64,000 nucleotides of DNA from an uncultured virus (IMG/VR IMGVR_UViG_3300033145_003180) (IMGVR_UViG_3300033145_003180); one strand, 5' to 3'; positions 1 through 47,804 are shown, counted from the first letter of the stretch. Made by a program: numbers and translations. Notes: a model not told the origin generated them from the sequence alone.

Positions 1-1265
1 CAAAACTTTTGCAGTTTTTCAATTTGAATACATTCTCTTCTGTTCTTTGTAATTATTCATAAGTTCATTTAACACCCATCTTTTTAATTTTTTACAAGCA
101 GATCCGATTGATTGTATTCCTTTAAGCATTGAGTTAAGAAAGGGATTGTTCCATGCATTTTTTAGGAGGGTATAAGCAAGGAAAACAAGGTGTAGGTGTA
201 TAACTACAGCGTCAAGTTTTCTTGCTTGATACTCACCTATTCCCAAATGCTGTTTACAATCCCTATGAAATACCTCAATACACCAGCGTTTTTTATAATA
301 TTCGAGAACCTGCAACCCATGATACTCAGTATTGTTTGATACAAGAAATGTAAAAGATCTGCTATTCTTTCTTGTTCGCAGGATAACAAGTTTCACAACG
401 CCAACATTTTTCATCATTACTTCTGTTTCAAAGATCCATTTAAACCGTTTTTCTCCAACTTTTTTATTGATACGTTTGAAGTCAGTTTTCTGCAAACACT
501 TTGCATACTTCTTCAGCTGTACCCATTTGTTACCAATTTGAATAAGACGATTGTTCCTCCCATCAGATATCCAAGTAAGACCTCTACTGTTAATAAAATC
601 AAGGATTTCCTTTGCCATATACCATGCATCAAAAACAATCACTTCAGGAGTCACCTGGGCCAAGGACAATCGAAGCAGATCCACTGCCATCTGAATCTTT
701 GTTTTAAACCAAATATCCAACTGATCAGCAACATCCTTTTTAACATACGGCTGAACATACAGGGGAACATGTTGTTTTCCATTCTGATAAAATGTTGAAA
801 CAATATCATGACAAAGCACTGTTTTTCCAGAACAATGATCCTTCAGGTATCCAACACCATCCATGTGTTTCCCTGATTTTTCAATTAACATATCATCAAG
901 AGCGATAACACCACCCTTCCGATTATCTATGTTTTCCTTTAGCCTAATAGCATTCATCTTTCTAACATCCCATTTACGCCTCGATATAAATCTATTCAGA
1001 GAACTCTGATGTTTTCCATCTAAAATATTAGATGCAATATCTTCAATGTTTTTCTCACCTTTCTCACTGAGAAGAAGACCATGAAGATATGTTTTGAAAT
1101 GAGTCCATTGCGGCTTTGAAAAACACTTTCTAAAAACATTTAACCTCGCCCCAAAGAGGTTAGTATCTTTTGTAAAGAACATCTTTTCATCCCATCCATC
1201 TGGATGAAAATGATGTTGTGACCTAATTGTTTTTTCTACCAAAATCTAAAAGTGCAAAAGTTTTG
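1..1265 (-). mobile_element. IS701-like insertion sequence
   Basis: 13-bp terminal inverted repeats CAAAACTTTTGCA (1-13) and TGCAAAAGTTTTG (1253-1265) flank a single DDE transposase ORF. Confidence 0.85.
19..1242 (-). CDS. DDE transposase, IS701-like (IS4 superfamily)
   Basis: Motifs IALDD..IEKSG, VFDAWY, YKKRWCIEVFHRDCKQHLG; start codon uncertain. Confidence 0.9.
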   Translation of the reverse strand: MVEKTIRSQHHFHPDGWDEKMFFTKDTNLFGARLNVFRKCFSKPQWTHFKTYLHGLLLSEKGEKNIEDIASNILDGKHQSSLNRFISRRKWDVRKMNAIRLKENIDNRKGGVIALDDMLIEKSGKHMDGVGYLKDHCSGKTVLCHDIVSTFYQNGKQHVPLYVQPYVKKDVADQLDIWFKTKIQMAVDLLRLSLAQVTPEVIVFDAWYMAKEILDFINSRGLTWISDGRNNRLIQIGNKWVQLKKYAKCLQKTDFKRINKKVGEKRFKWIFETEVMMKNVGVVKLVILRTRKNSRSFTFLVSNNTEYHGLQVLEYYKKRWCIEVFHRDCKQHLGIGEYQARKLDAVVIHLHLVFLAYTLLKNAWNNPFLNSMLKGIQSIGSACKKLKRWVLNELMNNYKEQKRMYSN

Positions 1266-1475
1266 ATATTTCGTAATATGGGTATTACGATATTTCTCGG
1301 TGCATTCATTATAGTTGGATGGGAGATATTGGAGAAGTATATCAAAAAGTATTATGATGTCTTTAATATCCCGTTTGGCAGGAAAACCGTCATGGAATCC
1401 CCTGAGAATAGCCTGGTTGATATCGTTGCGGGTTTGATCGGGGTGCTCTTTTTTGTATTTGTAATGTTGTTTTAG
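1266..1475 (+). pseudogene. 3' part of a small membrane protein gene, probably interrupted by the IS
   Basis: Hydrophobic reading frame (IIVGWEILEK...SLVDIVAGLIG) begins right at the IS end. Confidence 0.45.
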
Positions 1476-3849: not shown

Positions 3850-4025
3850 AATTAATGGAATGGTGTCATGACCGGAAATGTAGAACTCCTCATCCGATAT
3901 AGACTGCTTTGTCTTTACGGATATTTTTCTGCACCTGACATCATCGGTGCCATTCTTTAAATTAAAACAGAACTTATATAAAAGTATTAGTTATTACTGG
4001 TTTTATAAAAAAGGAGGAAAGTAAT

Positions 4026-4412
4026 ATGACAACGTTAGTAACGCCAAAATTATTAGAACCCATCGGGTTCGGAAAACATGACGCAGCAGTTCTATCATAT
4101 CTTATTAGCATGAAGAAATCGGTTAGTGCGGATATTGAGCATACCTGCAGACTGAGACAACCTGAAGTATGTCTCTCTCTGGGAAAACTTGTTGAAGAGG
4201 GTTTTGTGACATACACGAAAAAGAAGAAAGAGGGGAAAGGCCGACCTGTGCATATCTATAGTGTAAATGAAAAGATATTGAGTATGCTGAATCAGAAGTT
4301 AAGGCAGAAGCAATCGGAATTAGAATCAGATATCAAAAAACTTAATGAAATATCAGCGATTCTGGGTAAAAGACATCAAGAGCAAACGCAGAAGAAGATG
4401 AAGAACGCATGA
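4026..4412 (+). CDS. winged-HTH transcription regulator (TrmB/ArsR-like)
   Basis: LRQPEVCLSLGKLVEEGFV...KGRPVHIY followed by coiled coil; TTATATAAAA promoter near 3974. Confidence 0.8.
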   Translation: MTTLVTPKLLEPIGFGKHDAAVLSYLISMKKSVSADIEHTCRLRQPEVCLSLGKLVEEGFVTYTKKKKEGKGRPVHIYSVNEKILSMLNQKLRQKQSELESDIKKLNEISAILGKRHQEQTQKKMKNA

Positions 4413-4424
4413 ACGGAGATAATT

Positions 4425-5327
4425 ATGAACTTTTGTAAATGGTTTTTTGACAAGTATAAAGAGGGTATGAAGATAGTATCACTATTTCTAATAGCAAACT
4501 TGGGGATATATATCCTATTCTTGATGTTAACGCCGTTTCTCCCGCTTTTTAGCAATGTTCCACTTGTTGAATATAAATTGTGGTTGCACATTGCTATGTA
4601 TACATTAGTCTGCTTGTTCTCGGCTTTAGGATTGATGTTCTATTTCATCATTGTTGGAGTATATGAAAATTATGTGAAAGATGCAAGTGGGAAAAAGATA
4701 ACTTTCAAGGTAAAACCACAGTGGGTTGTATATACTGTTGCCATGGTCATCATTTTTACATTTGTAGGATACAACGGTGGATATGAAAATGGTGATTCCG
4801 ATGGGTTTACAGAAGGATTGGGGATAGGTATACGTGCAGGGTTACAGCAACCATACTATATGAGTGTACTTCCAGCAAGTATGAGAAGCGGCATTGATCC
4901 AATATTTGCACATAATGCCACGGTATCCATAAATGGAAGTGTGCCTGCAGAAGTTTCTCTGACAGAATATCTGATTATAGAAAACACAGATGATGAGCGT
5001 GTTGCAATCTCGCCTCTCATACTTTCACTTGTAAACCCTGTTACGTTAAAAGAGGGGTTGCATAAAGATCTTCAGACCAACTACACAAAAATTATTATAA
5101 CTATTGATGGTGTCCAAAACGTATTATATCAGGATGGAAATTATACCAATGGTGTTTTAATTGATGCTATTGAAGCAGGTGATATGGCAGACATGACAAT
5201 GACATTTACTTTAGAAATTGCTGATGTGGGTAGTTTCCAGGATGGTCAGTCATATACTAATTATCTATTTCTATATCAGTCAAAATCAGAGTATGCAGAT
5301 AAAATGCCTTTCATGGTGAACACATAA
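4425..5327 (+). CDS. membrane protein whose C-terminal domain is paralogous to 24767-25396
   Basis: 3 TM segments; shared IENTD, GLH and TFTLE..FQDGQSYTNY motifs. Confidence 0.75.
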   Translation: MNFCKWFFDKYKEGMKIVSLFLIANLGIYILFLMLTPFLPLFSNVPLVEYKLWLHIAMYTLVCLFSALGLMFYFIIVGVYENYVKDASGKKITFKVKPQWVVYTVAMVIIFTFVGYNGGYENGDSDGFTEGLGIGIRAGLQQPYYMSVLPASMRSGIDPIFAHNATVSINGSVPAEVSLTEYLIIENTDDERVAISPLILSLVNPVTLKEGLHKDLQTNYTKIIITIDGVQNVLYQDGNYTNGVLIDAIEAGDMADMTMTFTLEIADVGSFQDGQSYTNYLFLYQSKSEYADKMPFMVNT

Positions 5328-5348
5328 AGAAAAGGATATGGGATATAA

Positions 5349-5600
5349 ATGACAGTAGAAAAGAGTGGAAAGACAACCGAGATATTAACATTACCGATTA
5401 CCCAGAAGAACGCTGAGTATCTTATTATGAATGTCTGCACAAGTATATTTGGTTGTTACCAAGGTGATAAGAATGCAGACGATCTAGTTGAGCATCCAGA
5501 AACCATAAAACAGGAAGATTTTGATGATATTGCATTGCCTCAGTCTGAATTGAAAAAGGCACAAATAATTATAACGGATCTGCAAAAACTATTGTACTGA
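5349..5600 (+). CDS. hypothetical protein
   Basis: ORF track; co-oriented with neighbours. Confidence 0.55.
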   Translation: MTVEKSGKTTEILTLPITQKNAEYLIMNVCTSIFGCYQGDKNADDLVEHPETIKQEDFDDIALPQSELKKAQIIITDLQKLLY

Positions 5601-5607
5601 GATAAGA

Positions 5608-5630
5608 ACGATATCATCATATCGTAATGG
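5608..5630. repeat. ACGATA-N6-TATCGT inverted-repeat site 1
   Basis: acgata tcatca tatcgt aatgg. Confidence 0.75.
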
Positions 5631-5637
5631 AGAAAAA

Positions 5638-5955
5638 ATGAATCGAAAAAGCGTAGTATTATTAATTGTTGTTCCTATCATTGTTGGGTTGGTGTTCAGT
5701 GCCCCTCTTATCTATAATTGGCAACGTAATAAAGAGTTGGTTGATCAAAAAATCGAATTAGGCAAGATAATCAATATTGATGTTCCACCCGAGATACGCA
5801 ATGCTAATTATCGTGTAATGGAAGAGGGGGTTGATGATGAATTTATCCCTGTTATTTACATAGCATTTGCTTTTAGTTATTGTGTTACTTTATCAGGTAT
5901 TTTAATTTATTTGATTGAACGTAAAGAAGAGCATAACGATATTACCGTATCGTAA
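5638..5955 (+). CDS. small membrane protein (2 TM)
   Basis: Two hydrophobic segments; stop codon lies in site 2. Confidence 0.65.
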   Translation: MNRKSVVLLIVVPIIVGLVFSAPLIYNWQRNKELVDQKIELGKIINIDVPPEIRNANYRVMEEGVDDEFIPVIYIAFAFSYCVTLSGILIYLIERKEEHNDITVS

Positions 5956-5959
5956 TTGG
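5936..5959. repeat. ACGATA-N6-TATCGT inverted-repeat site 2
   Basis: acgata ttaccg tatcgt aattgg. Confidence 0.75.
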
Positions 5960-5967
5960 AGGGAATT

Positions 5968-6135
5968 ATGGAAAAGAAAGACACAATGGGTATTATTTTT
6001 TACAGTGTAATTTTAATATTTGCCCGTGTCGCTACTTATGCATCATATTTATCAGGAGATATGTATTTGTTAATGCTATGTGGTGCCTTGGTTATCGGTG
6101 CAATTGTTTGTTTAATTATTGAGATACGATATTGA
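5968..6135 (+). CDS. small membrane protein (55 aa, not in ORF track)
   Basis: GGAGG RBS; MEKKDTMGIIFYSVILIF...VCLIIEIRY*; stop codon lies in site 3. Confidence 0.6.
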   Translation: MEKKDTMGIIFYSVILIFARVATYASYLSGDMYLLMLCGALVIGAIVCLIIEIRY

Positions 6136-6150
6136 TGTATCGTAATTTGG
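6126..6150. repeat. ACGATA-N6-TATCGT inverted-repeat site 3
   Basis: acgata ttgatg tatcgt aatttgg. Confidence 0.75.
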
Positions 6151-6255
6151 AGACGATATATTTAATTGTGGGAAAAATATGTCCAAGGATGAGATACAAG
6201 ATATGTTAGATGAGTTTGATAATAGGTCTATTCTTGGGGGAATGGGTGCTGAAAG

Positions 6256-7044
6256 ATGAAAATATATGTTGCAAAATTTAATCGTGCAGAAAGTTCGTTG
6301 GAATTATTAGTCAAAAAACTGGAACGATTGGGAATGTTGACCCTGGATTATCATAAAGCCGATTATTTTTTGTTGTCTGGAGATCGCACTAAAATGTTTG
6401 ACTTCGCTGTAAGATGTCTTAGAGATAATAAGAAGATAATACATCTATGGGCTGGTGAATGTGATGGCAATTGGTCAACATATGATGAATGGTATAGGAC
6501 ATTCATAACTCTTTCCAGTTGTATCCAGTTGTGTACTAATGATCATGCTTTAAATAGAGTGAATCAGTTGTGCAAAGCAACAGATAAAAAACCTAATGCC
6601 TACATTGTGGGCAATCTTATGCTTGATAATCTTGAACTGGATGAATCAGTTATACCTAATAAACCATACAATCTTATATTGTATAACCCAATCACAAAAA
6701 GAAAAATAGTAGAAGCAGAAATTATCCAAATAAGGCGGATTCTTAATAAGGACAAGATTCCATATATTTGGCTTGCACCAAATGGTGATATGAACAGCGA
6801 CCTGATAGATAAATGGGTAACTGAAGAATCTATAGAAAGAGCCTTGTTTTTAGGCTTATTAAAACATTGTAAGAAATTCATAACAAATTCATCGTGCCAG
6901 TATTATGAAGCACCCTTTCTTATGGATGCAAAAAATATAATATCGATTGGTGAAAGAAATGCTTGTAGAGAAAGTAAAAATGCAGATATGATGATACCCA
7001 ATGCATCCGAAAATATTATTAGAATATTGGAGACATTAGAATGA
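6256..7044 (+). CDS. UDP-GlcNAc 2-epimerase (NeuC-like, shortened)
   Basis: GDR, IIHLWAGE, DEWYR, VGNLMLD, ITNSSC..YEAP and IGERN motifs. Confidence 0.7.
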   Translation: MKIYVAKFNRAESSLELLVKKLERLGMLTLDYHKADYFLLSGDRTKMFDFAVRCLRDNKKIIHLWAGECDGNWSTYDEWYRTFITLSSCIQLCTNDHALNRVNQLCKATDKKPNAYIVGNLMLDNLELDESVIPNKPYNLILYNPITKRKIVEAEIIQIRRILNKDKIPYIWLAPNGDMNSDLIDKWVTEESIERALFLGLLKHCKKFITNSSCQYYEAPFLMDAKNIISIGERNACRESKNADMMIPNASENIIRILETLE

Positions 7045-7954
7045 AAATCGACTCAAACTTTCATTTAAAAATAGCAAAAAAAGAGAAACAGACGCAAGAG
7101 TATGTTGAGTATCGCAGGAAATGGAATGAGAATCCCCAAAAATTTATAGTTGGAGATTTCCCGATACATGTAGATATAGAAACAATTACCACATGTAACC
7201 TCAAATGTTTTATGTGTGTTCAATCATATGATCCACCCGATCCGATGAAGATGGATTTTAAAGTTTTTAAAAAAGTTATTGATGAGTGTGCAGGAAAAGG
7301 AGTGTGTTCTATCAAAACACAATACCGTGGAGAGCCGCTTTTAGACACACGAATGCCAGACATGATAAAATATGCTAAAGAAAAAGGGATTTTAGAGGTT
7401 ATGTTTAATACAAATGCTACACTTTTATCCGAAGGAACAGCAAAAGCTTTAATTGATGCAGGATTGGATAAAATAATATGCTCTGTAGATGGCTATACTA
7501 AAGATGTTTATGAAGCATGGGATATAAAAAACCTATTACCCGAGTTCAAATGGTGGATACTCCAAGAAATCATCATCAAATTGAGGGTTACATAAAATTT
7601 TGGGGTGAAATCGCAGATCAAGTTGCTGTTGAAGATATGTTGGATTGGGAAGCCAAGGAGGAAGATAGTACACCATTAGAAGACTGGAGTTGTGCACAAT
7701 TATGGCAACGATTAATTATACTTGCAGATGGGGATGTATTGTCTTGTTGCCGGTCTATAAAGGGAGGGACTGAAAAACAATCCGTGATAGGAAACATAAA
7801 TAAATCATCTTTGGAAGAATTGTGGAAGGGGGATATTATGACTATGCTTAGAACTGCGCACAAACAAGGATGCTCACACAAGATAAAAATGTGCAGATTG
7901 TGTGGATTGAGGAAAGATATTATAAAGGAGAATTATGAAAGGAATTGTAAATGA
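7041..7954 (+). pseudogene. radical SAM/SPASM protein split by a frameshift near 7515
   Basis: CNLKCFMC in ORF 7041-7595; SPASM cysteines (CAQLW..CC..CRLC) in overlapping ORF 7517-7954. Confidence 0.75.
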
Positions 7955-8654
7955 TGATCATTGTTTTATCATCGCGGAAGCTGGAATAAACCACAACGGG
8001 GATATAGATACGGCAAGACGATTGGCAAGAGAAGCAAAGAACTGTGGTGCTGATGCTGTAAAGTTCCAGACCTTTTGGAATATCAGATGGCTTTCTGAAT
8101 ATGAACTCTCCAGAGAAGAATTTATAGAATTGTTTTGCTATTGCAATAAAATAGGAATAGAATTCATGTCCACACCACATGATTTTGAAGCAATACATTT
8201 TATAGACAGCCTAGTAAATATACATAAGGTAGCAAGTTGTTTCATGGGTGTACCTAACTTTTTGAAGGAAATAGGAAATAAAAATAAACCCCTGCTTCTA
8301 AGTACAGGAAGTTTTCATAATAGTAACGGTATGCTATCTTCTGATTCGATAAATAGGGGTTTGCCATTCATTCCCCACCAGAATATTATATTAATGCATT
8401 GTATCAGTAAATACCCTTGTAAGCAGAGTAACCTATACAGAATAGAAGAATTGAAGTCTTTCGGTTTTCCTGTGGGTTATTCTGATCATACAAAGAATAT
8501 TAAGATGCCTCAAGTCCCTGTTTTAGAAAAGCATTTTATGTTAGATGATGTTCATAGTATTGATGAATATGTGTCGCTTAAACCAGATAAATTCAGGCAG
8601 ATGGTGGAATATATAAGAGAGATGGAAAAAGATGAAAAATATATTTGCAAATAA
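7935..8654 (+). CDS. N-acetylneuraminate/nonulosonate synthase family (NeuB-like), no C-terminal SAF domain
   Basis: IIAEAGINHNGD, GADAVKFQ, HCISKYP, VGYSDHT, LEKHF. Confidence 0.9.
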   Translation: MKGIVNDDHCFIIAEAGINHNGDIDTARRLAREAKNCGADAVKFQTFWNIRWLSEYELSREEFIELFCYCNKIGIEFMSTPHDFEAIHFIDSLVNIHKVASCFMGVPNFLKEIGNKNKPLLLSTGSFHNSNGMLSSDSINRGLPFIPHQNIILMHCISKYPCKQSNLYRIEELKSFGFPVGYSDHTKNIKMPQVPVLEKHFMLDDVHSIDEYVSLKPDKFRQMVEYIREMEKDEKYICK

Positions 8655-9471
8655 AATTAATATTGGTAAAAACGTAGAGATATCATCAAAAGCAAAAATC
8701 ATATGTGATGAAATATCAATCGGTGACGGAACTGTAATCACAGGTAATACAGTAATTAATTGTAAAGAATGCTTAATCGGTAAAAACAACTTTTTTTATG
8801 ATGTCTTGATTGAAGGTTCATTAAATGTAGGAAATACAAAAATAAAGATTGGAAACGAAAATCTTTTTGCGCAAAATACTAGATTAAATTGCAATGACTA
8901 TATAGAAATTGGGAATGATGTGAATACTGGTGAGGTCCAAATCTTTACGCATTCATCCTCAATGGATGTTTTTAATGGCTATCCTTTTAAAAAAGCTCCA
9001 GTGAAAATAGGTTCTCATGTATGGATAAATATTGGAGCTATAATTCACCCTGGCGTGACTGTTGGTTCAAACGTAATAATCTTGAATAAATCTGTCGTTA
9101 ACAAGAATATACCATCAGGTTCTCTTGCTGGTGGCATTCCGGTCAAAATAATTAAAAAAAATTATTATCCGAAACTGATACAAACTGCTGAAAAAAATGA
9201 AATTGCAAAAGACTGCATAAAAGAGTATTATGAATTATTAAGATTTAAACCAGTTAATGCTGAAGTAAATCTGATGGATAATCTATGTATTGAGTTCGTC
9301 AGTGATAACAAAAAAATAATTTTTGATTTAAAATCAAGAAAAATTATTGGGGGAATGACTGTTCAAGCTGAAGACTTTAGAGATTTTCTAAGATATAGAG
9401 GGATAAAATTCTTTACAGGAAAACCATTTAAATCAATTTCCCCCAATTGGCGTGTGGAGGCGTTAAAATGA
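8632..9471 (+). CDS. left-handed beta-helix acyltransferase
   Basis: Hexapeptide repeats; APVKIGSHVWI...GGIPVKII. Confidence 0.85.
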   Translation: MKNIFANKINIGKNVEISSKAKIICDEISIGDGTVITGNTVINCKECLIGKNNFFYDVLIEGSLNVGNTKIKIGNENLFAQNTRLNCNDYIEIGNDVNTGEVQIFTHSSSMDVFNGYPFKKAPVKIGSHVWINIGAIIHPGVTVGSNVIILNKSVVNKNIPSGSLAGGIPVKIIKKNYYPKLIQTAEKNEIAKDCIKEYYELLRFKPVNAEVNLMDNLCIEFVSDNKKIIFDLKSRKIIGGMTVQAEDFRDFLRYRGIKFFTGKPFKSISPNWRVEALK

Positions 9472-10118
9472 AGGTCCTTGTAATTGCTCCTCATCCAGAT
9501 GATGAGGTTTTGGGATGTGGTGGAACAATAGTAAAACATGTATCCAATGATGATATTGTTTATCTTTGTATAGTCACAAAGACATATACACCGGATTGGA
9601 CAATGAGTTTTGCAGAAAAAAGAAAAAAAGAAATAAAAAATGCAAACAGGATTTTAGGGATTGAAAAAACATATCTATTGGACTTCCCCACAGTAAAATT
9701 AGATACAATACCTCAAAAGGAATTAAATGATTCGATAGCGAAAATTGTGAGGGTTGTTAATCCAGATATTCTATATATCCCGCATCAGGGTGATTTGAAT
9801 AAAGATCACCGTTTGGTTTTTGACTCAGCGTTAGTTTCTATCAGATTTAATAACAAAATAATAAAAGTTAGGTCCTATGAAGTTTTGTCATCAACTGAAT
9901 GGGGCAGGATGTATAGCCCGTTCATTCCTAATACTTATGTAGACATTACAAAAACTTTTGAAAAAAAAATAAATGCTATGATTGAATATGGAAAAGAACT
10001 GAAAGGATCATTGCACCCAAGATCAATAGAGATAATAGAAGCACTTGCAAAAAGGCGAGGGTCTGAGGTAGGCTTAAAATATGCTGAAGCATTTATGTTA
10101 ATAAGAGAAATAGGATAG
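9468..10118 (+). CDS. PIG-L/LmbE family deacetylase
   Basis: APHPDDEVLGCGG and DLNKDHR. Confidence 0.9.
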   Translation: MKVLVIAPHPDDEVLGCGGTIVKHVSNDDIVYLCIVTKTYTPDWTMSFAEKRKKEIKNANRILGIEKTYLLDFPTVKLDTIPQKELNDSIAKIVRVVNPDILYIPHQGDLNKDHRLVFDSALVSIRFNNKIIKVRSYEVLSSTEWGRMYSPFIPNTYVDITKTFEKKINAMIEYGKELKGSLHPRSIEIIEALAKRRGSEVGLKYAEAFMLIREIG

Positions 10119-10172
10119 AAAAGACGATGTGAAATTAAAGCTTAAAAAATTGATGGGGAATATAGCGAAGTA

Positions 10173-11012
10173 ATGAATATGTTACCGAATTTTATTATAG
10201 CAGGTGCAGCAAAATCTGGAACTTCGTCATTATTAAGATATCTAGGAAAACATCCAGATATTCTTACAGGTGGACAACGAAGTGGCAGAAAAGAAGCGGG
10301 TTTTTTCAATAATAACTATGAGAAAGGCATTGAATGGTATGAACATTTCTTTGAGGATTGGAATGGTGAAAAAGCGATAGGGGAGAAATCTGTTGGATAT
10401 ATGATACATAAAGAGTCGCCTGAAAGAATCAAGAAAATGATACCGGATATAAAAATAATTTTTGTATTGAGAAATCCAGTTGATCGAGCATATTCTCACT
10501 ACTGGCATGATTGTATCAGACATTCAGAAAAAGAAATCATACCTTTTGAAGAAGCGATTAAAAGAGCAGAAGATGTAGATCCAAAAAGAGAGTACTATTT
10601 GAGAATCGGCAGGTATTGCGAGCACATAAAATATTGGAGGGGTTTCTTTCCTAAAGAAAACATGCTCATTCTAAAAACGGAAGATTTGAATAAAAAGGGT
10701 TTAAAAGCGGTTTTGAGATTTTTAAATGTCAATGAGAGTTTTGATTTTGGTGAACTTAAGAAACATAACATCGGTGGCAGTCCAAGAAGCAAAATACTTG
10801 CAACAATATCAAGAAATCAAATTATAACAAAAACACCGTATCTTTATGGATTTGTGAGCAAGATAATAAATCAAAAAAAAGGGAAATACTCTGAGATGAA
10901 TAAAAAAACAAGAAAAAAGCTACAAGAATATTACAAACCATATAATGAAGAACTAGAAAAAATAACAGGTCTTGATATAACAGAATGGAAATACGATAGC
11001 ACCATATCGTAA
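10173..11012 (+). CDS. sulfotransferase
   Basis: PAPS-binding GAAKSGTSSL and LRNPVDRAYS. Confidence 0.9.
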   Translation: MNMLPNFIIAGAAKSGTSSLLRYLGKHPDILTGGQRSGRKEAGFFNNNYEKGIEWYEHFFEDWNGEKAIGEKSVGYMIHKESPERIKKMIPDIKIIFVLRNPVDRAYSHYWHDCIRHSEKEIIPFEEAIKRAEDVDPKREYYLRIGRYCEHIKYWRGFFPKENMLILKTEDLNKKGLKAVLRFLNVNESFDFGELKKHNIGGSPRSKILATISRNQIITKTPYLYGFVSKIINQKKGKYSEMNKKTRKKLQEYYKPYNEELEKITGLDITEWKYDSTIS

Positions 11013-11016
11013 TTGG
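10993..11016. repeat. ACGATA-N6-TATCGT inverted-repeat site 4
   Basis: acgata gcacca tatcgt aattgg; supplies the sulfotransferase stop codon. Confidence 0.75.
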
Positions 11017-11032
11017 TGGATGAGAATAAAAA

Positions 11033-11305
11033 ATGTTTAAATCACTATTGAGAAAACGAAACATTGGAAAAGGATTCGCCCATGCAAAAAAAGAACACAG
11101 CATGGAGAGGTATTGTACTATTACACTCGTTCTTACTTTTTTATTTTTAGTATTCAGATTTTATGTTGATGATGGATCCATACGTGTACTAATTGGTTTT
11201 ATCGGGATGTTGGTATTCATCGCCCTTGTTTTCAGAGCGTTGGCTGGATATCATCATAAGTGGGAGAAACACCATCTTGATGATATGCGAAGGGGAAAGA
11301 AGTAA
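11033..11305 (+). CDS. small membrane protein
   Basis: 2 TM segments. Confidence 0.6.
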   Translation: MFKSLLRKRNIGKGFAHAKKEHSMERYCTITLVLTFLFLVFRFYVDDGSIRVLIGFIGMLVFIALVFRALAGYHHKWEKHHLDDMRRGKK

Positions 11306-11313
11306 ATGTTTTT

Positions 11314-11559
11314 ATGATATTAGACGTTTACTGGATGATAATGGCAGATGAAACCAATAAAAAAGAAAAGAAGCCTTTGATGCAACGCCTGAAATATGCA
11401 ATATTAGTTTCTGCGATCCTGTTTTTTATCGGAGGGTTTATCTTTCCGATACTCTACAGTGCAAGTTTTTCATTATCTGATTTTTTGATCGGTGGCGTTT
11501 TTTCGGTGTTTTTAATGTGGGTAAGCATTATCCTCGGACATTATTTTATGCAGATCTAA
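11314..11559 (+). CDS. small membrane protein
   Basis: 2 TM segments; start may be 11341. Confidence 0.55.
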   Translation: MILDVYWMIMADETNKKEKKPLMQRLKYAILVSAILFFIGGFIFPILYSASFSLSDFLIGGVFSVFLMWVSIILGHYFMQI

Positions 11560-31600: not shown

Positions 31601-33256
31601 GCCATCATTCGCATACATTTTCTGGTATGGAAATTCTTTACCACCCATCAAGATAATATATTCTATACCTTCGCTGTTGACACGATGGCGAATATAGTTT
31701 CGTATCTTATGTTGTGTCTCATTGTACTTATCGTAATCTGCTATAGTCTGGCTGTAATAATACGGGTTTGCAGGGGTGTTATCCCCCCACGTTCCATTTA
31801 TCCAATATATGCTGTTCGATGTGATTGTGGAGACATTTACACACTCCACAGAATATGTGGAATTGCCTTCCTTCCAATCCTCAAACGCCTCTGCTTTGCT
31901 TAGATTGGTTCCATCATATAACACAATAATAGTATCTCCCACATCCGTGTCAAAATGGTATGTTTCATTATCCCAATTAGTCCCATCTGTCAGGTTGAAC
32001 CACAGATAGTAAGTTGTGTTAACGGTATCAATCCATGACGTGTTAGTAAAAGCATGAGAACCATTTGATAATCCCGTACCGCTTGACTGGTTGACTGTCT
32101 GCCAACTGCCTGATTCATTAGTCTTGATAGTGACGTTCATCTTATCCCCATTCGGGTCGGAGATTGTCAGGTTTATGGAAGTTGGAGTAATTGATACACC
32201 AGAAACATTCAAAGATTCCTCTTTGGATTCTGTAGCGTTCCATATAAGCTGACTTGATTGTGAAGGAATAGTCTCCCCCACAGTCGTAAAATGGTAAATC
32301 TCACTTTCATTGCCCGTACCGTCATTAACGTAGACCTTCCACCAATACTTAGTAAGATAAGAATCAAAATCTGTAAAAGTGTATGATTCCGTTCCGTTTG
32401 CAGCCTCGGAACTATTAGTATGTTTATTCACCCATGAACCGCTCTCGTTTGTCGCCCAAGTGACGTTAAGACTGTCACCGTCACTGTCATTGGTGTACAC
32501 ACTGCACTTTACCCCACCTGAGAAACTTACACCAGTGGAAGCGTTTACGGGTGTCTTATAGTCAACTGTCGGTGCGGTATTTGTTGTATATGTGATATTT
32601 ATGCATGGGTCGTTAGACGTGCCAGCCTGTTCAGAATAGTAGCAACCGCTTTTAATTGCCCCGCCTGGCGCAGAATCCAAATAATCGTAATTGTACTCCC
32701 TGGCACAGTAATAGGTATATCCGGTTTTGCTGACATCGGAGATTCCCTGGGCGTTCAAGGTAAATGAATTGTAAGCACCCAAACTCCACGAATCCACAGT
32801 AGCGTAATAACTGCCTGAGAACGCATTGAAATCGCCTGTTGTTACTGCCCCGTCCCCTTGGGTTCCTTGTTGGATGGATACTTTATTCCCACTGTATTGT
32901 TTTCCATATACTTTAATCACAACACTTGTGATTGTGCATGTATCCGGCAATGAGGATGTATCAAATTTAAAAAAACTCCGTGTAACAGCATATAGACCTT
33001 TTTCAAGGTCGGCTGTGATTCCATCGTCTTTATGTGTGGTTGAACTGGATGCGAACCCACCTGTTGAATGTGCGGTAGACCATGTTGCAGTTGCATCACT
33101 ACCTACATATCCGTCATCGGAATGACTATACAGCCAACCTGTATCAGCAGCACTAACAGAAAAATTAATATTGAAATTCATTAAGCTAATAGGAAACAAA
33201 CAAAACATTAAAAGTAATATTATTAAGCATGGTCCTAATCTTTTGAATATTTTCAT
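28649..33256 (-). CDS. large secreted multidomain protein with gingipain-like (C25) peptidase domain and Ig-like repeats
   Basis: YIILMG, SD..FGCLD, ITVGR, STHGG, QSC, FFGDP; repeated TNESGSW..YWW.VN.TDG modules. Confidence 0.75.
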   Translation of the reverse strand: MKIFKRLGPCLIILLLMFCLFPISLMNFNINFSVSAADTGWLYSHSDDGYVGSDATATWSTAHSTGGFASSSTTHKDDGITADLEKGLYAVTRSFFKFDTSSLPDTCTITSVVIKVYGKQYSGNKVSIQQGTQGDGAVTTGDFNAFSGSYYATVDSWSLGAYNSFTLNAQGISDVSKTGYTYYCAREYNYDYLDSAPGGAIKSGCYYSEQAGTSNDPCINITYTTNTAPTVDYKTPVNASTGVSFSGGVKCSVYTNDSDGDSLNVTWATNESGSWVNKHTNSSEAANGTESYTFTDFDSYLTKYWWKVYVNDGTGNESEIYHFTTVGETIPSQSSQLIWNATESKEESLNVSGVSITPTSINLTISDPNGDKMNVTIKTNESGSWQTVNQSSGTGLSNGSHAFTNTSWIDTVNTTYYLWFNLTDGTNWDNETYHFDTDVGDTIIVLYDGTNLSKAEAFEDWKEGNSTYSVECVNVSTITSNSIYWINGTWGDNTPANPYYYSQTIADYDKYNETQHKIRNYIRHRVNSEGIEYIILMGGKEFPYQKMYANDGSSGPSDLLFFGCLDSTQNILDNQTHYGGVATDDSYDHSVDITVGRFIFANDTEWTNMFTKTKNYKALSNTDSQFGHYVILDDERSVASWSVDDIWTDALSGKGLNISTTLGPWYDSGKITFPEDVNESSVQLENCINITTRNDSLVPMLNCEDGSWPHGFAMYISSTHGGDDYNETTPYTSLYENFTNDSHPYFALPQSCSASNFIATSPTLPHVITAKGGAFAGFGAATTMTVGGCTVLEPFLLNLFEGNRTIGVVASETFEDIVANSRRHFNFFGDPTLKYKYPSYPALQNMYPYRMHTAPSNVTILDCDVADFDGDTMTVYYRTNASGSWATLKTWSNVDTGDDLIYFASAFDNTDTEYWWSINVTDGTYWINRTQNFTTFSDSTPTIDWVEGLEDSTTTSPEMTVHIDGVAGNAPSVIFRGLVSGTWRDLQYNYYNVNPVLTNTSWMSQYNTTYTWSVNMTCGATWVNETFYTYCTDAYSYGTTTQISPNADLNSSHYLFTHNTGSTNYGCIDDTYASPDDNTTYVEVDTATYPPGMYTEYYDYEAIDSNYQVDYVSIKFKMYTTDKGNKYGFGLKSNSETLDYLFKENNPDVYTWYTVIRNFSINPITGNAWTPSDISALNLLLTMEEKVVTPKCTQLVMNVYGDYNPNVTNPSPTNGSTITSNPTLTIDVNDTDSNSLDVYWLSNSSGSWAQFATNMSVDVSGNAVTIRQNNSNFTGGEYWWSVNATDGVLWTNNTYWLIVNEAPELTSPSISPDTGFDSQTTFYYNITWADVNGNDPTDGYLVVNISRTGWYTNQSMAWISGLNTTGALYSYSSLLTAGNYSVQFYAYDGFDRNTTNNYFLPNVSDFIWLDINNLTWALGNVVMGSSEWTNNSKTFLANLNDTTVDTDLKLQITNDGADWTAATSGNEPDVNIYRLNASINIWIDEFQIITASQTTISEIIPIGNNETFDLRFDAPSATGVGDQQQITVTATLIKH

Positions 33257-41115: not shown

Positions 41116-41579
41116 TGACAAAACATACCATTATTGGTGTGTTTGGTATGGTCAAAATAACGGATGAAATATTAAAAAAGATGCGTGAAATGCGACAACG
41201 CGGTATGACATATGCAGGAATACAAAAGGTACTTGGCATTAGTAAATGGGCATGTATAACTTATCTGAAAGATATAAAATTAGAGCAATCCGCAGTAGAA
41301 AAAGCATGGCGAAAGGCAGAGAAAGAAGCTTTAAGTTATCTGAAAACAAAAGGATTCAAAGATTTACATGATTTGAACGGTATATGCCCGACACCATACT
41401 GGGACATTCTGGCTAGGAAAGATAATGTTTGGTGGTTGATTGATGTTACTATATCAGAAGGGAAACAAGTAGGGGCTAAAATCCCTTATTTTGTCGATAG
41501 TTACATCCATGCAGTTCTTCACAGGAACATGAATAGTGATAAGTGGAAGTTAGTAAAGTTATCTTATGAGAAAGTATAA
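41115..41579 (+). CDS. HTH fused to Hjc-like PD-(D/E)XK nuclease
   Basis: GMTYAGIQKVLGISK; AEKEALSYLKTKGF..WDILARK...LIDV. Confidence 0.6.
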   Translation: MTKHTIIGVFGMVKITDEILKKMREMRQRGMTYAGIQKVLGISKWACITYLKDIKLEQSAVEKAWRKAEKEALSYLKTKGFKDLHDLNGICPTPYWDILARKDNVWWLIDVTISEGKQVGAKIPYFVDSYIHAVLHRNMNSDKWKLVKLSYEKV

Positions 41580-44406
41580 AATAAGTAATGAAAGGCGAGA
41601 AAAGATGGAAGCGGAATTAATATTTAATGGCAACTCAAATAATTTAACTCCAACTAGACCGCAAGAAGAATCGCTACTTGCTATCGCCAAAATGAAACAA
41701 CAAAATAAAAATAAGTATATGGTAGTGTTACCGTCTGGTATCGGCAAAACATATCTTAGTGCTTTTGAAACATATGATTTTGATGGAAGAATTTTATATC
41801 TTGCTCATAGAATTGAAATTTTAACTCAAGCAAAAAATGTTTTTAAATCAATTCATGAAATTAAAGACAAAGATATTGGCTTGTATAACCAAAAGAAAAA
41901 ACAACTTGATAAAAAAATTGTTTTTGCTTCTGTTCAAGCCATTAGTAGAACAAAAAATCTGCATCAGATAAAAAAAGATTATTTTGATTATATAATTCTT
42001 GATGAATTTCATCATGCCGCAGCATTAAGCTATCAAAGAATACTGCAATATTTCAAACCAAAATATTTACTTGGGATAACTGCTACACCATATAGATTAG
42101 ATGGAAAAGATATTCTTTCATCAATAAACTATAACATTCCATATCAAATGGAATTGAAAGAAGGGATAGATGCAGGGTGGTTATCTCCTTTTATGTATTA
42201 TGGTTTATGGGATGATATTGATTACTCGGATATAAAATGGAGTGGATATAAATACACAGAAAAAGATCTAAATAAAAAACTCCTGATTAAAAAACGAGAT
42301 GATGCTGTCATACATGAAGTTAAAAAAAGAATTGGTGCGAGACAAACTATTGGTTTCTGTTGTTCTATAAAGCATGTAAAAAGATGTGTAAGAACATTCA
42401 ATGATGCTGGTTTTTCTACAAATGCAATTCATTGTGAAATTGGTTTGAAAGAAAGAAGGCAGATAATTAAGGATTTTAGAGGGGGGGAATATCAAATTAT
42501 TTTTACAAGAGATATTTTTAACGAAGGTGTTGACTTCCCAGAGGTTGAATGTCTTTTGTTTTTAAGACCTACGTTTTCTAAAACAGTTTTTTTCCAACAG
42601 CTTGGGCGAGGTTTGAGGAAAAAAGAAGGAAAGGAAAATGTAATTGTTTTAGATTTTATTGGTAACTATGTTAATGCATATAAAATTAGAGAGTGGTTTA
42701 AAGCAGTTGTCAGCACAGGTGAAGGGGAAAGTTATTTCAAACCAGAATATACACATAAACAATCAAAAGTTTTTTTTGATGATAGAATTATTGATTTATT
42801 TGAGTTGCAAGAAAAGCATTCAAGATATGCAAAAGAACAGCTTGTCAAACATTATCTAGAACTAAAAGAAAAGATCGGTAAAAATCCTTCTGCACACGAC
42901 ATGGAGAGATATAGTGATATTTCCATCTGTCCATATATAACATGGTGGGGTTCTTGGCTTAATTTTAAAATTTTTATGAAAGATAATGTAACACATATAA
43001 CAAAGAATCAAATTAAAGAACAATATCATAATTTTTATAAGAGTTATAAACGTCACCCGTCAGTTAGGGATATAAGAAAACATCATTTATATACAGATAA
43101 TACAGTAAGGGCAATTTTTGGTTGTGGATTTAGTGCTGCGTTGAAGGAGATGGGGTTTGAACCGAAAAGAATGACTTGCTTAGACGTGTCACCTGAAGAT
43201 GTGGTGAAAGATTATTTTAAAGCAAAAGAAAGGGTTGGGAGACGACCATGTGTTAGTACCGACAAAAAATATTGTGAGTTAAACACTATATATTCATGGA
43301 TGTATTATTGTACACGATATTTCGGTTCATACCATAATTTTTTAATTATAATAAATGAATCATTACCTTTTCATACTTCACCAACAAAAAAAGATTTAAT
43401 AGATAATTATGATAGAGTGCAAAAAATATTAAAAAAGCCGTTAATTCAAACACACCTAGATACAAAACCAAGTCTTTATCACTCATATTTTTACAATAAA
43501 ACATGGGGATCTTGGAGTGGTTTTTTAGAGGATATAGGTGTAAAAGTAAAAATAACAAAAGAAATATTAATTAAACATTATTATAAACGCAAAGATGAAC
43601 TTGGTGAACAACCAGATACAACCACAATAGCTGGAGATTACATAGGTAGCTACTTTCCATATAAAAGAATATTTGGAAGTTGGAAGAAATTCCTAAATGA
43701 AATTGGAGAAGAGAAAAAACCTGTCATACAACACACAAGACAAGATGTAATAGATAAGTATAATGAAATCAAAAAAACAAAGATGCCAGGAAGACGGGAT
43801 CTTGGTTTTAGTGATAATATATATGTTAAATTATTTGGTTCATATCAAAATTTCAAAGAAAATGTGATGAATGACGGTGTTAATAAAAGGCTGACTAAAA
43901 AACAAATTGAAGATAAAATATTAGTGTTTTATAAAAAGAATGGTTTTATACCAAAAACAGCAGAATTGCCTAAATATAACCTACCTTGCTTTCAAACAAT
44001 TACAGATAGATTTGGGTCATACCATAATTTTATATCAGGAATAGGACTAAAACCATTTCGGAATAAGAACGTAACAAAAAAAGAGTTGATTGAACATTAT
44101 TATAAATTTAAAAAGGCATTAGGTAGAAAACCAATAGAGCAGGAATTAGAGATGGGCGGGTTAAAGCATTGGTATAACAAATACTACGGTTCTATAGAGA
44201 GATTTTTAATTGAGATTGGTGAAATAAAAATGAATAAAGAAGAATTGATTGACCGTTATCTTAATTTAAAAAGGAAGATAAAAAAGACACCGTCCGCTGC
44301 TGATATGATGAAAATTGGTAGAACTGTGAAACCATACGAGAGAATATGGGGTTCTTGGACTAGCTTCAAAAAAGAAATGGAAGAATCCCATAAAATATCT
44401 ACATAA
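41566..44406 (+). CDS. SF2 DExH (ResIII-like) helicase with 9 C-terminal helical repeats
   Basis: PSGIGKT, DEFHH, TATP, EGVD, QQLGRGLR; repeats K..li..Y...lG..P...(F/W)GS(W/Y)..F. Confidence 0.9.
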   Translation: MRKYKISNERREKMEAELIFNGNSNNLTPTRPQEESLLAIAKMKQQNKNKYMVVLPSGIGKTYLSAFETYDFDGRILYLAHRIEILTQAKNVFKSIHEIKDKDIGLYNQKKKQLDKKIVFASVQAISRTKNLHQIKKDYFDYIILDEFHHAAALSYQRILQYFKPKYLLGITATPYRLDGKDILSSINYNIPYQMELKEGIDAGWLSPFMYYGLWDDIDYSDIKWSGYKYTEKDLNKKLLIKKRDDAVIHEVKKRIGARQTIGFCCSIKHVKRCVRTFNDAGFSTNAIHCEIGLKERRQIIKDFRGGEYQIIFTRDIFNEGVDFPEVECLLFLRPTFSKTVFFQQLGRGLRKKEGKENVIVLDFIGNYVNAYKIREWFKAVVSTGEGESYFKPEYTHKQSKVFFDDRIIDLFELQEKHSRYAKEQLVKHYLELKEKIGKNPSAHDMERYSDISICPYITWWGSWLNFKIFMKDNVTHITKNQIKEQYHNFYKSYKRHPSVRDIRKHHLYTDNTVRAIFGCGFSAALKEMGFEPKRMTCLDVSPEDVVKDYFKAKERVGRRPCVSTDKKYCELNTIYSWMYYCTRYFGSYHNFLIIINESLPFHTSPTKKDLIDNYDRVQKILKKPLIQTHLDTKPSLYHSYFYNKTWGSWSGFLEDIGVKVKITKEILIKHYYKRKDELGEQPDTTTIAGDYIGSYFPYKRIFGSWKKFLNEIGEEKKPVIQHTRQDVIDKYNEIKKTKMPGRRDLGFSDNIYVKLFGSYQNFKENVMNDGVNKRLTKKQIEDKILVFYKKNGFIPKTAELPKYNLPCFQTITDRFGSYHNFISGIGLKPFRNKNVTKKELIEHYYKFKKALGRKPIEQELEMGGLKHWYNKYYGSIERFLIEIGEIKMNKEELIDRYLNLKRKIKKTPSAADMMKIGRTVKPYERIWGSWTSFKKEMEESHKIST

Positions 44407-46563: not shown

Positions 46564-46701
46564 ATGGAAACAACACAGAAGGTTGGGAAGGATTTCAGGA
46601 TCATTATTCCTGGTCCCATTAGGCGAGTGATGAACATCGACGTTGATGATGATGTCGTTATCGATATAAAAGAAGTAATAAGAAAGGAGGAAAAACAATG
46701 A
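46564..46701 (+). CDS. AbrB/MazE/SpoVT-family DNA-binding protein (45 aa, not in ORF track)
   Basis: METTQKVGKDFRIIIPGPIRRVMNIDVDDDVVIDI; ATGA overlap with the Tas gene. Confidence 0.8.
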   Translation: METTQKVGKDFRIIIPGPIRRVMNIDVDDDVVIDIKEVIRKEEKQ

Positions 46702-47804
46702 CCAGTGAAATAGAAGGTGTCGATATCATTCTGGATCTTGGCAAGGCAACAGTTCCAGCATATTATGATCTACAGAACTTGAGGATATCATCATCCCATC
46801 GTGTCAGAGATATTGTACGCAGAAAAATCATGGGAATACCGATGAGTACCCCAGAAAGGAAAAAAGAAACGAAAACCTTTGATGAAAAATTCAAGGACAA
46901 AAACATAGTGGGGTACCTAGATGATATGTTCAAGAAGGGGCAGATAACTGACAACGAAAGAAGATATCTTTTTGATATGATCAATGTTGTAAACGGCCTG
47001 AAAAAACAGGAGAACAGTTACAAAAAACTCATGGAACAGTATCTTATGAAAGAGGAGATATGGCATGCATGGTTGAAGAATGTCAGAGGTATCGGTGAAG
47101 TAATCGCCGCAAATCTTGTTAACAAATTCGGATATTGTGAAGTTATCGTCTGGGATAAGAAAGAAAATGTTATGTATGCCAGAGAAACAGGCGATGAAAA
47201 GAAACTTGCAAAGGGTTTGCAGTTGGTCATGGAAGATGGAAAAAGATACAAGCAAACTGGTTTTTTCAGTGTTAATCATTTGAACAGCTACTGTGGAATG
47301 GATGTTACCAAAGATGGTGTGGCCACAAGAGCCATGAAAGGTGTTAAGAGCCATTTTGATCGTGATGCAAAGCAGATATGTTTTAAGATCTCCGAAAGCT
47401 TCAAGAAACAAAGAAGTCAACCGTACCGTGATATCTATGATGTAGCAAAAGCTGGATATCTGGATCGGGTGTATGAACCAGGAGTGCTTTATGAAAAATA
47501 TGGTAAGGGCTACAAAAGCGAGACGACAAAACAGTATAAGAGAGAGGATACAAAACTGATACTTGGGCATGCCGGAAGGATGGCTTTGAGAAAAACAGCG
47601 AAAATATTCCTGCAACATTACTGGACTGTCAGCAGACAACTGAAAGGGTTATCCACTGAGCCACCATTCATTATCAAAAATGATATGAAACACACGCATT
47701 ATATATCGCCACCGAATATCCCTGAGAGTCTGCAACCGTTTGACTGCTATAAAGAAGGACATGGATCAACACTGAGAGGAAAAGAATACACAAAAAAAGT
47801 ATAG
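46698..47804 (+). CDS. tasA: TIGR-associated Nop-domain protein, TasA-like (IS110-related, no RuvC or HNH)
   Basis: YYDLQNLRI..HRVR coiled coil; WLKNVRGIGEVIAANL; F.SVNHLNSYCG; YRDIYD..K; HAGRMALRKTAKIFLQHYW; directly upstream of the dual-repeat array. Confidence 0.8.
   Translation: MTSEIEGVDIILDLGKATVPAYYDLQNLRISSSHRVRDIVRRKIMGIPMSTPERKKETKTFDEKFKDKNIVGYLDDMFKKGQITDNERRYLFDMINVVNGLKKQENSYKKLMEQYLMKEEIWHAWLKNVRGIGEVIAANLVNKFGYCEVIVWDKKENVMYARETGDEKKLAKGLQLVMEDGKRYKQTGFFSVNHLNSYCGMDVTKDGVATRAMKGVKSHFDRDAKQICFKISESFKKQRSQPYRDIYDVAKAGYLDRVYEPGVLYEKYGKGYKSETTKQYKREDTKLILGHAGRMALRKTAKIFLQHYWTVSRQLKGLSTEPPFIIKNDMKHTHYISPPNIPESLQPFDCYKEGHGSTLRGKEYTKKV

Follow-up and report, generated by a model that had tools for sequence, protein, structure and literature searches.

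We identified a short palindromic site that stands in four copies at the gene joints of one gene cluster, in a 64-kb window (64,000 nucleotides of a 91,603-bp contig) from an uncultured virus (IMG/VR IMGVR_UViG_3300033145_003180). The core of the site, ACGATA-N6-TATCGT, occurs exactly four times in the window, always on the plus strand (Table 1). Alignment of the four copies extended the conserved unit to 24 bp, a 9-6-9 palindrome of the form ATTACGATA-N6-TATCGTAAT. The four sites are non-random copies of one oriented site at gene joints. We favour reading the site as a cassette-like or module junction, to which we give a probability of about 0.4. The finding is a compact, portable junction site in an archaeal mobile context, probably a docking place for a protein that would join or control gene blocks, and not a demonstrated new system. 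To our knowledge, no archaeal cassette system is established apart from a few integron reports, and little is understood of how accessory genes are acquired and exchanged by the viruses, plasmids and genomic islands of archaea.

The first-pass annotation of this DNA had described perfect 6-bp arms around variable 6-bp cores at 5608, 5936, 6126 and 10993, and an exact scan bore this out: the pattern never appeared in 100 dinucleotide-preserving shuffles of the window (mean 0.00, maximum 0, vs 4 observed). When up to two mismatches were allowed, nine matches were obtained vs 2.26 expected. The five additional matches each carry two mismatches and lack the conserved flanks, and are counted as chance. 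We also enumerated all perfect palindromes with 6-bp stems and 3-9-nt loops in the window. ACGATA with a loop of 6 was the sole one present in four copies, the others reaching two at most; among 30 shuffles, the maximum multiplicity was 2 in 24, 1 in five and 3 in one. A wider motif scan, which the first-pass annotation had proposed, returned these four exact copies in 64 kb and a second contig with several copies, L079. Chance or compositional coincidence, for which just the short arm length speaks, therefore deserves practically no credence: no shuffle held a single match, the flanks of the four copies are conserved, and L079 is a second multi-copy locus.

The two arms of the site differ in how strictly they are kept. 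All four copies keep the right 9-mer, TATCGTAAT, without a change. Its reverse complement, ATTACGATA, is matched by the left arm at 7, 8, 7 and 8 of 9 positions, and this arm is relaxed at the outer three, while the inner 6+6 are invariant; 15 specified positions are identical in all four copies, and the arms of the window sites are palindromic over 6-7 bp. The spacers (lower case in Table 1) all differ, the best pair being alike at 4/6 positions, and because of this the uninterrupted identity between copies measures only 9-12 nt, that is TATCGTAAT plus a few bases. On the 3' side each site is followed by AAT, 0-2 T and then a Shine-Dalgarno (SD)-like GGAG (three copies) or GGTG (one copy), in agreement with the AAT(T)GG first noted there. 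All four copies are direct repeats oriented with the genes, at site-to-site distances of 328, 190 and 4867 nt. The 9-mer TATCGTAAT itself occurs exactly six times in the window: in the four sites, at 1284 (minus strand) and at 31729.

Other classes of repeat were considered and rejected. The spacing of 328, 190 and 4867 nt does not suit an array of the CRISPR type, and the strict placement at gene joints is unsuited to iterons or parS. A genome-wide repeat of the repetitive extragenic palindrome type was rejected on 0 copies in the remaining 58 kb, and a miniature inverted-repeat transposable element on the lack of a visible target duplication around the unit. A full-text literature search on the arm sequences gave no such archaeal site among the matches listed; in PMC5217627, both arm words fall inside a CRISPR repeat.

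All four sites lie inside 4026-11559, a stretch that reads as one putative transcription unit, because promoter-like elements precede gene starts only at 1528 and 3971 and none stands beside a site. In a crude scan for AAC plus a T-rich, TATA-like sequence, the matches shortly before a gene start were those at 1528 (49 nt before 1577) and 3971. The other matches between 3900 and 11600 (4339, 8256 and 8788) are all inside genes, and none was found beside any of the four window sites. Each gene downstream of a site has its own GGAG-type SD, and the next start codons (5638, 5968, 6179 and 11033) follow 12, 14, 35 and 22 nt past the 18-mer. Three of the four upstream genes end in the site, as the first-pass annotation had it. 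At sites 2 and 4 the stop codon consists of the last T of the site plus AA, whereas 7 nt separate the end of the stop from site 1. The sites delimit two single-gene units (105 and 55 aa) and a 4.85-kb sugar cluster, and this part of the earlier description was likewise upheld.

Table 1 Sites and other features of the window discussed in the text.
Feature	Position	Strand	Remarks
Possible fifth, odd copy, TTTCGTAAT atgggt ATTACGATA	1269..1292	+	9-mer twice, one copy with 1 mismatch, in opposite relative order
Promoter-like AAC + TATA element	3971..3990	+	55 nt before first gene (4026)
Predicted winged-helix regulator, Lrs14/MreA/Sta1-like, long C-terminal helix	4026..4412	+	First gene of the unit; candidate site binder
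300-aa membrane protein and 83-aa protein, no assigned function	4425..5600	+	Precede the array
Site 1, ACGATA tcatca TATCGT	5608..5625 (24-bp unit 5605-5628)	+	Between 83-aa gene (stop 5598-5600) and 105-aa gene (ATG 5638)
Single-gene unit, small membrane protein, 105 aa	5638..5955	+	
Site 2, ACGATA ttaccg TATCGT	5936..5953	+	105-aa open reading frame (ORF) reads through (tail NDITVS), TAA 5953-5955; next gene SD GGAGGG, ATG 5968
Single-gene unit, small membrane protein, 55 aa	5968..6135	+	
Site 3, ACGATA ttgatg TATCGT	6126..6143	+	55-aa ORF stop TGA 6133-6135 in spacer
3' of site 3: GGAG, solo ACGATA, 26-aa ORF	6153..6158 (solo ACGATA); 6179..6259 (ORF)	+	ORF overlaps NeuC-like start at 6256
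4.85-kb sugar unit	6179..11012	+	26-aa ORF, NeuC-like epimerase, radical SAM + SPASM (split), NeuB-like synthase, hexapeptide acetyltransferase, PIG-L deacetylase, sulfotransferase
Site 4, ACGATA gcacca TATCGT	10993..11010	+	Sulfotransferase ORF reads through (tail YDSTIS), TAA 11010-11012; next gene GGTGG, ATG 11033
Trailing unit, small membrane proteins, 90 aa and 81 aa	11033..11559	+	Plus-strand block ends here

The first gene of the unit deserves mention here, as its product is a candidate binder of the site. The protein matches 2d1h (E 2.2e-5), AbfR2 (6cmv) is its top Foldseek hit, and Lrs14 and Sta1 were also matched; against NCBIfam MreA it scored E 7.8e-22 and 77 bits, short of the cut-off of 100. 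The ESM Atlas returned nothing usable for the 83-aa and 300-aa proteins (best feature scores 0.81 and 0.76). Within the sugar unit, radical SAM (7041-7595) and SPASM (7517-7954) fall in two overlapping plus-strand ORFs, through a frameshift, a sequencing error or a split gene. No site was found after 11559 within the convergent gap.

The same site in other contigs and the joints of relatives

Metagenome contigs searched with the extended pattern yielded nine loci, and GTDB genome contigs, searched with the same pattern, yielded four. Among the nine metagenome loci, L079, a complete contig of 2867 bp with a GC content of 0.35, is the sole true second example. Its site copies lie on the minus strand. 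An exact site with perfect 9-bp arms (619-602) is followed by AATTGGGAGG, two sites with one mismatch (993-976 and 429-412) are followed by AACC + T5 + A, which is TATA-like, and a degenerate copy lies at 2770-2753. All four copies stand at gene joints and are oriented with the genes. The upstream stops lie 27 nt before, 5 nt before, inside and 2 nt before the site, and the next starts 39, 17, 60 and 44 nt after it. Three of the four sites abut a promoter-like AACC-T4-5-A that resembles the window elements at 1528 and 3971, and across the two contigs the right flanks are of an SD type and a promoter type. By blastp, no L079 ORF matched a window ORF, the regulator included (the contig is only 2.9 kb). 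The genes bounded by this one site in the two contigs are therefore unrelated.

The ORF after the third L079 site (1-351, minus strand) matches the PF07508 Recombinase domain (E 5.8e-5, 23.7 bits, cut-off 21.1). Because only 78 residues precede this domain, there is no room for a serine-recombinase catalytic domain; the ORF is cut by the contig end and gave no match in NCBIfam. The spacing of two consecutive sites is 190 nt both in the window (5936 to 6126) and in L079 (619 to 429). The proteins enclosed, a 55-aa membrane protein and a 53-aa soluble protein, are unrelated, and the shared spacing may be coincidental.

The remaining loci appear to be of other kinds. In the bacterial contigs L071 (1383-1400), L072 (3040-3057) and L075 (4496-4513, minus strand), an identical 18-mer plus AATTGGAGG stands between MarR-family and MATE efflux genes; the MarR-family gene is followed by a GC-rich hairpin, the site lies before the SD of the MATE gene, and the 18-mer is probably the operator of that MarR regulator. 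Matches judged chance-like were rejected: those in L073, L077 and L078 (within opposite-strand long ORFs), L074 (within a same-strand ORF), L076 (a single match in high-GC DNA, with overlapping long ORFs on both strands) and the four GTDB genome contigs (single bacterial matches).

Among viral contigs, the core pattern (15 specified bases) gave 70 loci with one match each. None of these carried the GGWG extension, and no second copy at one mismatch or fewer was present in the 70 viral and four genome loci. Seventeen of the 70 form one prophage-like family with a GC content of ~0.41 (L018, L021, L022, L025, L030-L033, L044, L046, L049, L055, L059, L060, L062, L066 and L069), in which TTAACGATA-taaata-TATCGTAAT stands ~25 nt before SD and ATG, 0.5-1 kb from the contig end. 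This palindrome is the bacterial phage group's own and unrelated to the window. The L079-type pattern gave two loci among viral contigs, which are one virus with a single site. Scans of viral-contig proteins with the 300-aa, sulfotransferase, L079 226-aa, 105-aa and 90-aa proteins returned no relatives, and tblastn of INPHARED phages with the regulator and the 300-aa protein returned no match.

We compared the joints in relatives at the protein level, through protein ends and alignments only. For the sulfotransferase before site 4, 120 of 2016 homologues were listed. The closest among the matches listed, P0001 (273 aa, 93% identical), aligns from end to end with 10173-10991 and goes no further. 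Its stop falls at the window's TAC, the codon that opens the left arm, and an intact left arm is therefore impossible at the aligned, ungapped position in that relative; the window ORF continues for six codons (YDSTIS). Ten more distant sulfotransferase homologues end at or just past a conserved W. Three homologues of the 105-aa protein before site 2 were found among 1.84 billion representatives. The alignment of P0253 reaches 5934, 2 nt short of site 2; past that point the protein closes with KVKS where the window has NDITVS, and P0252 and P0254 diverge slightly earlier. On the other side of site 4, P0251 is 94% identical to the 90-aa protein, with the alignment starting at 11030, 19 nt past the right arm. 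Its predicted N-terminal extension of 10 residues, METILIYQIK, has no counterpart in the 36 nt upstream in the window, read in all three frames; further homologues of the 90-aa gene are 76-77% identical. These comparisons weakly suggest that close relatives have different joints, the difference lying in the site or beside it.

Weighing the readings of the site

That a protein may bind the site, and that recombination may take place there by one enzyme or another, are inferences from the sequence. In the reading that we favour, a dimeric protein would recognise ATTACGATA-N6-TATCGTAAT, and the site would mark joints where promoterless accessory modules, each with its own SD, were spliced into one transcription unit, the whole being driven from a promoter near 3971. 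A module would end with the left arm, often swallowing its native stop so that the ORF runs on into the site, and the next module would open with the right arm plus SD. Recombination at the sites would add, remove or exchange modules, through an enzyme from elsewhere, either a host Xer-type recombinase or one encoded by the element outside the window. Such a junction is favoured as it would account for the joint placement, the uniform orientation, the promoterless SD-bearing units, the run-on ORFs, the portability of the site and the absent hairpin signal. A cassette junction agrees with three findings: upstream ORFs extend into the site whereas the closest homologues end at its edge, the sequence upstream of P0251 is different, and L079 carries unrelated cargo.

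Several observations weigh against this reading. A Pfam and PHROGs scan of ORFs across the 64 kb, with ORFans taken at E up to 0.05, turned up no integrase, resolvase, Xer or other recombinase family, just as the first-pass annotation had seen no recombinase gene; the recombinase-domain ORF of L079 lacks a catalytic N-terminal domain. The four spacers all differ, and a simple tyrosine-recombinase insertion would leave equal spacers on the two sides of a unit, although differing spacers may not be fatal to a cassette, to judge by the pdif sites in the excerpt of PMC13141974. The palindromic arms measure just 6-9 bp, and the layout of direct repeats with such arms departs from defining features of pdif modules and of integron attC. 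P0251, despite 94% identity, lacks a right arm plus SD in the 30 nt before its start. It is therefore a misfit with a model in which right arm and SD travel with the downstream gene, and it would put the break after the SD and not in the site. Genes end at joints anyway, a single base change from TAC to a stop could explain P0001, and the breakpoints are read from protein ends. In addition, a winged-helix regulator heads the operon, and three of the four L079 sites are set against promoter-like AACC-T4-5-A, the position of a regulator. Finally, L079 is the sole second example, the 70 viral and four genome loci with the core pattern being single and chance-like.

Whether the site acts as a hairpin or as a duplex was assessed by RNA folding. 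The minimum free energies were -5.5, -5.8 and -7.6 kcal/mol for three site stretches and -14 kcal/mol for a 72-nt stretch at site 3, the last because a second hairpin also folds; the z-scores of the four stretches, -0.16 to -1.48, are no better than those of shuffles. Rfam at gathering score gave 0 matches in the whole window. Over eight copies (window and L079), 0 of 9 pairs showed a two-sided change and every departure was a one-sided break, so that neither a family match, nor stability beyond background, nor covariation marks the site as a structured RNA. Given the weak hairpin and the lack of compensatory changes, the site is therefore read as double-stranded DNA that a dimeric protein would bind. 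Conserved arms, a free spacer and one-sided decay point to independent half-sites of a dimeric DNA-binding protein rather than to a selected hairpin. We accordingly consider it quite unlikely that the site works as an RNA or single-stranded-DNA hairpin, be it for intercistronic processing, for stabilising or terminating the upstream cistron at its 3' end, or for coupling translation by the SD. In favour of a hairpin, its orientation is always that of the transcript, the window sites stand 0-7 nt from the upstream stop, where a terminating ribosome would melt the stem, and two L079 sites are followed by AACC + T5 in a terminator-like layout. However, no T-run follows the window sites, and a conserved stem with a free loop is the reverse of most protein-bound RNA hairpins.

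The same features, namely conserved half-sites, a free 6-nt spacer and no hairpin signal, are the classic signature of a dimeric DNA binder. The sites may be operators of a dimeric winged-helix regulator, either the 4026-4412 protein or a host factor, that would control internal promoters or block read-through per accessory block. We regard this as the main rival, somewhat less probable than a module junction. The first gene of the unit encodes a winged-helix protein with a long C-terminal helix, three of the four L079 sites run at once into AACC plus a T-rich, TATA-like sequence, and the identical 18-mer stands between the MarR gene and the MATE SD in L071, L072 and L075. In the 17 prophage-like contigs, too, a related palindrome lies before the SD, so that the geometry is used where operators are expected, and the relaxed outer left arm is explicable by overlap with upstream coding sequence. 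On the other hand, no recognisable promoter lies beside any of the four window sites, which all fall between stop and SD inside an operon, and no copy stands at the regulator's own promoter (3950-4025). A homologue of the window regulator is absent from L079, though that contig is just 2.9 kb, and identity at 15/15 positions in four copies is tighter than in most operator sets. An operator also does not by itself explain the ORF run-on vs the earlier stops of relatives, or the origin of four identical sites. PeSL elements (promoter-early stem-loops) are composite motifs of promoter and terminator. A mobile regulatory joint of a similar kind, an expression signal whose copies are shuffled by ordinary or microhomology-mediated recombination without a dedicated enzyme, would cover both the regulatory look of the site, with its right flanks of SD and promoter type, and what is seen at the joints of relatives. 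It would fit the absence of a detected recombinase in 64 kb and has precedent in T4-type phages (excerpts of PMC2839356 and PMC4122927). We nevertheless hold it to be improbable: 9-12 nt of uninterrupted identity offer little substrate for homologous recombination, and the evidence for shuffling is at the protein level only.

Returning to the module junction, a more far-reaching form of it would be an undescribed archaeal gene-cassette platform, with the 24-bp 9-6-9 site, a recombinase acting in trans (XerA of the host, or an enzyme encoded by the element outside the window), insertion and exchange of promoterless SD modules, and spacers that serve as addresses between elements, a role suggested for dif modules too. 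Its modules, all within one operon, would be as small as a single short gene and as large as the 4.85-kb sugar-modification cluster. We regard this platform as doubtful. The archaeal gene-cassette array proposed by the first-pass annotation thus survives in part: the joint placement, the homologue ends at the site edge and L079 agree with it, and the differing spacers, the undetected recombinase and the possible operator role of the sites do not. If a compact site does bound modules in two unrelated contigs, it would offer a handle for metagenome searches, for a catalogue of cargo and for testing candidate enzymes. The cargo here consists of surface-sugar modification genes and small membrane proteins. 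If the site is an operator instead, it would define the regulon of an Lrs14/MreA-like regulator on a mobile element, which is useful but ordinary.

Host and other loci of the window

The window opens with an IS701-family insertion sequence (IS; 1-1265) bounded by 26-nt inverted repeats (1-26 and 1240-1265). Among the matches listed, the sole named relative of its transposase, at 64% identity, comes from a metagenome-assembled genome of Thermoplasmatota, and the named sulfotransferase relatives at 43-48% identity are mostly Thermoplasmata. The host is therefore probably an uncultured Thermoplasmatota archaeon. Most ORFs of the window have no family.

The odd fifth copy begins 4 nt past the IS end (1265) and spans the ATG (1278) of an ORF for a small membrane protein. 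It may be a rearranged or IS-disrupted site. An IS family reportedly targets pdif sites (PMC10132070), and an IS end adjoining a rearranged pair of 9-mers recalls such elements, as a single case.

Further loci stand apart from the site. For the ORF at 46698-47804 (plus strand), NCBIfam gave a match to NF052498.1, "TIGR-Tas system RNA-guided endonuclease" (E 1.8e-39, 136 bits, cut-off 100), and Pfam gave nothing. An array follows directly 3' of this ORF, starting at ~47829 and running past 48320. It is built of ~38-nt units, with variable stretches of ~9-10 nt alternating with GAAACCCA and TGCATAAGCCA. The array looks like a matching TIGR guide array, on what we take to be the anatomy of such arrays. 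At 41566-44406 (plus strand), a 946-aa ResIII/helicase protein carries four C-terminal HNH_repeat (homing-endonuclease-associated) repeats, and the neighbouring ORFs have no family.

Comparison with known systems

The attC sites of integrons are long imperfect palindromes folded as single strands. The window sites differ from them in measuring 18-24 bp, in folding no better than shuffles and in showing no compensatory changes. As in integron cassettes, promoterless units stand in one orientation downstream of one promoter, with one site per joint, ORFs running into the site and unrelated cargo. Unlike in an integron, no IntI-type integrase was found beside the array by the Pfam and PHROGs scan, although a promoter-like element, at 3971, does precede the unit, and one "cassette" here is a multi-gene cluster of 4.85 kb.

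The site may also be compared with pdif/dif modules, on which XerC/XerD act. As in these modules, according to the excerpt of PMC13141974, a 6-bp spacer separates two arms of which one is better conserved, spacers differ within a replicon, the sites bound accessory gene modules, and a recombinase would be encoded elsewhere. The excerpt on Acinetobacter dif modules describes pdif sites of one plasmid with differing 6-bp spacers, and recombination only between sites with identical or near-identical spacers, the partners lying in other replicons. The spacer here is 6 bp in all four copies; the best pair of spacers within the window agrees at 4/6 positions, short of that equality. Where pdif arms, in the same excerpt, are 11 bp and of two distinct kinds, the arms here are palindromic over 6-7 bp in the window and 9 bp in the exact L079 site, with a right arm conserved over 9 nt. 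Neighbouring pdif sites are described there as inversely oriented, C and D modules alternating, whereas the sites of the window and of L079 all share one orientation. Recombination at pdif sites was shown by experiment, according to the excerpt of PMC13141974, whereas the present site is known from sequence alone. The presence of an IS beside a partial site is a further likeness to pdif with its targeting IS, and the archaeal host, in which Xer is a single XerA, a further difference. The tyrosine-recombinase geometry proposed in the first-pass annotation is retained as regards inverted arms around a 6-bp core, sharpened here to 9-6-9, with a layout that departs from defining features of pdif and attC.

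Archaeal Xer/dif, with XerA, shares the inverted arms around a 6-bp spacer and an enzyme that need not adjoin its site (excerpt of PMC2958812). In that excerpt, however, each chromosome has a single dif of 28 bp (11-6-11), located in its termination region, whereas an array at gene joints is found here.

The PeSL cassettes of T4-type phages, as far as the excerpts of PMC2839356 and PMC4122927 describe them, likewise show a short, repeated motif of regulatory appearance where small accessory ORFs meet, within a variable part of a mobile genome. Gene content that differs between close relatives at the motif may be a further likeness, to judge by the protein-level ends at 10991 (P0001), 5934 (P0253) and 11030 (P0251). 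The window sites differ in having an SD and neither promoter nor terminator, and in a much shorter shared identity. A promoter-like or T-run flank stands at 0/4 window sites, and AACC plus a T-rich, TATA-like sequence at 3/4 L079 sites.

MarR/Lrs14-type operators differ from the window sites in position, since the latter are not at promoters and none is at the regulator's own promoter. In form the two are alike: the site is a palindrome with conserved half-sites and a free spacer, and an Lrs14/MreA-like gene heads the operon in which it stands.

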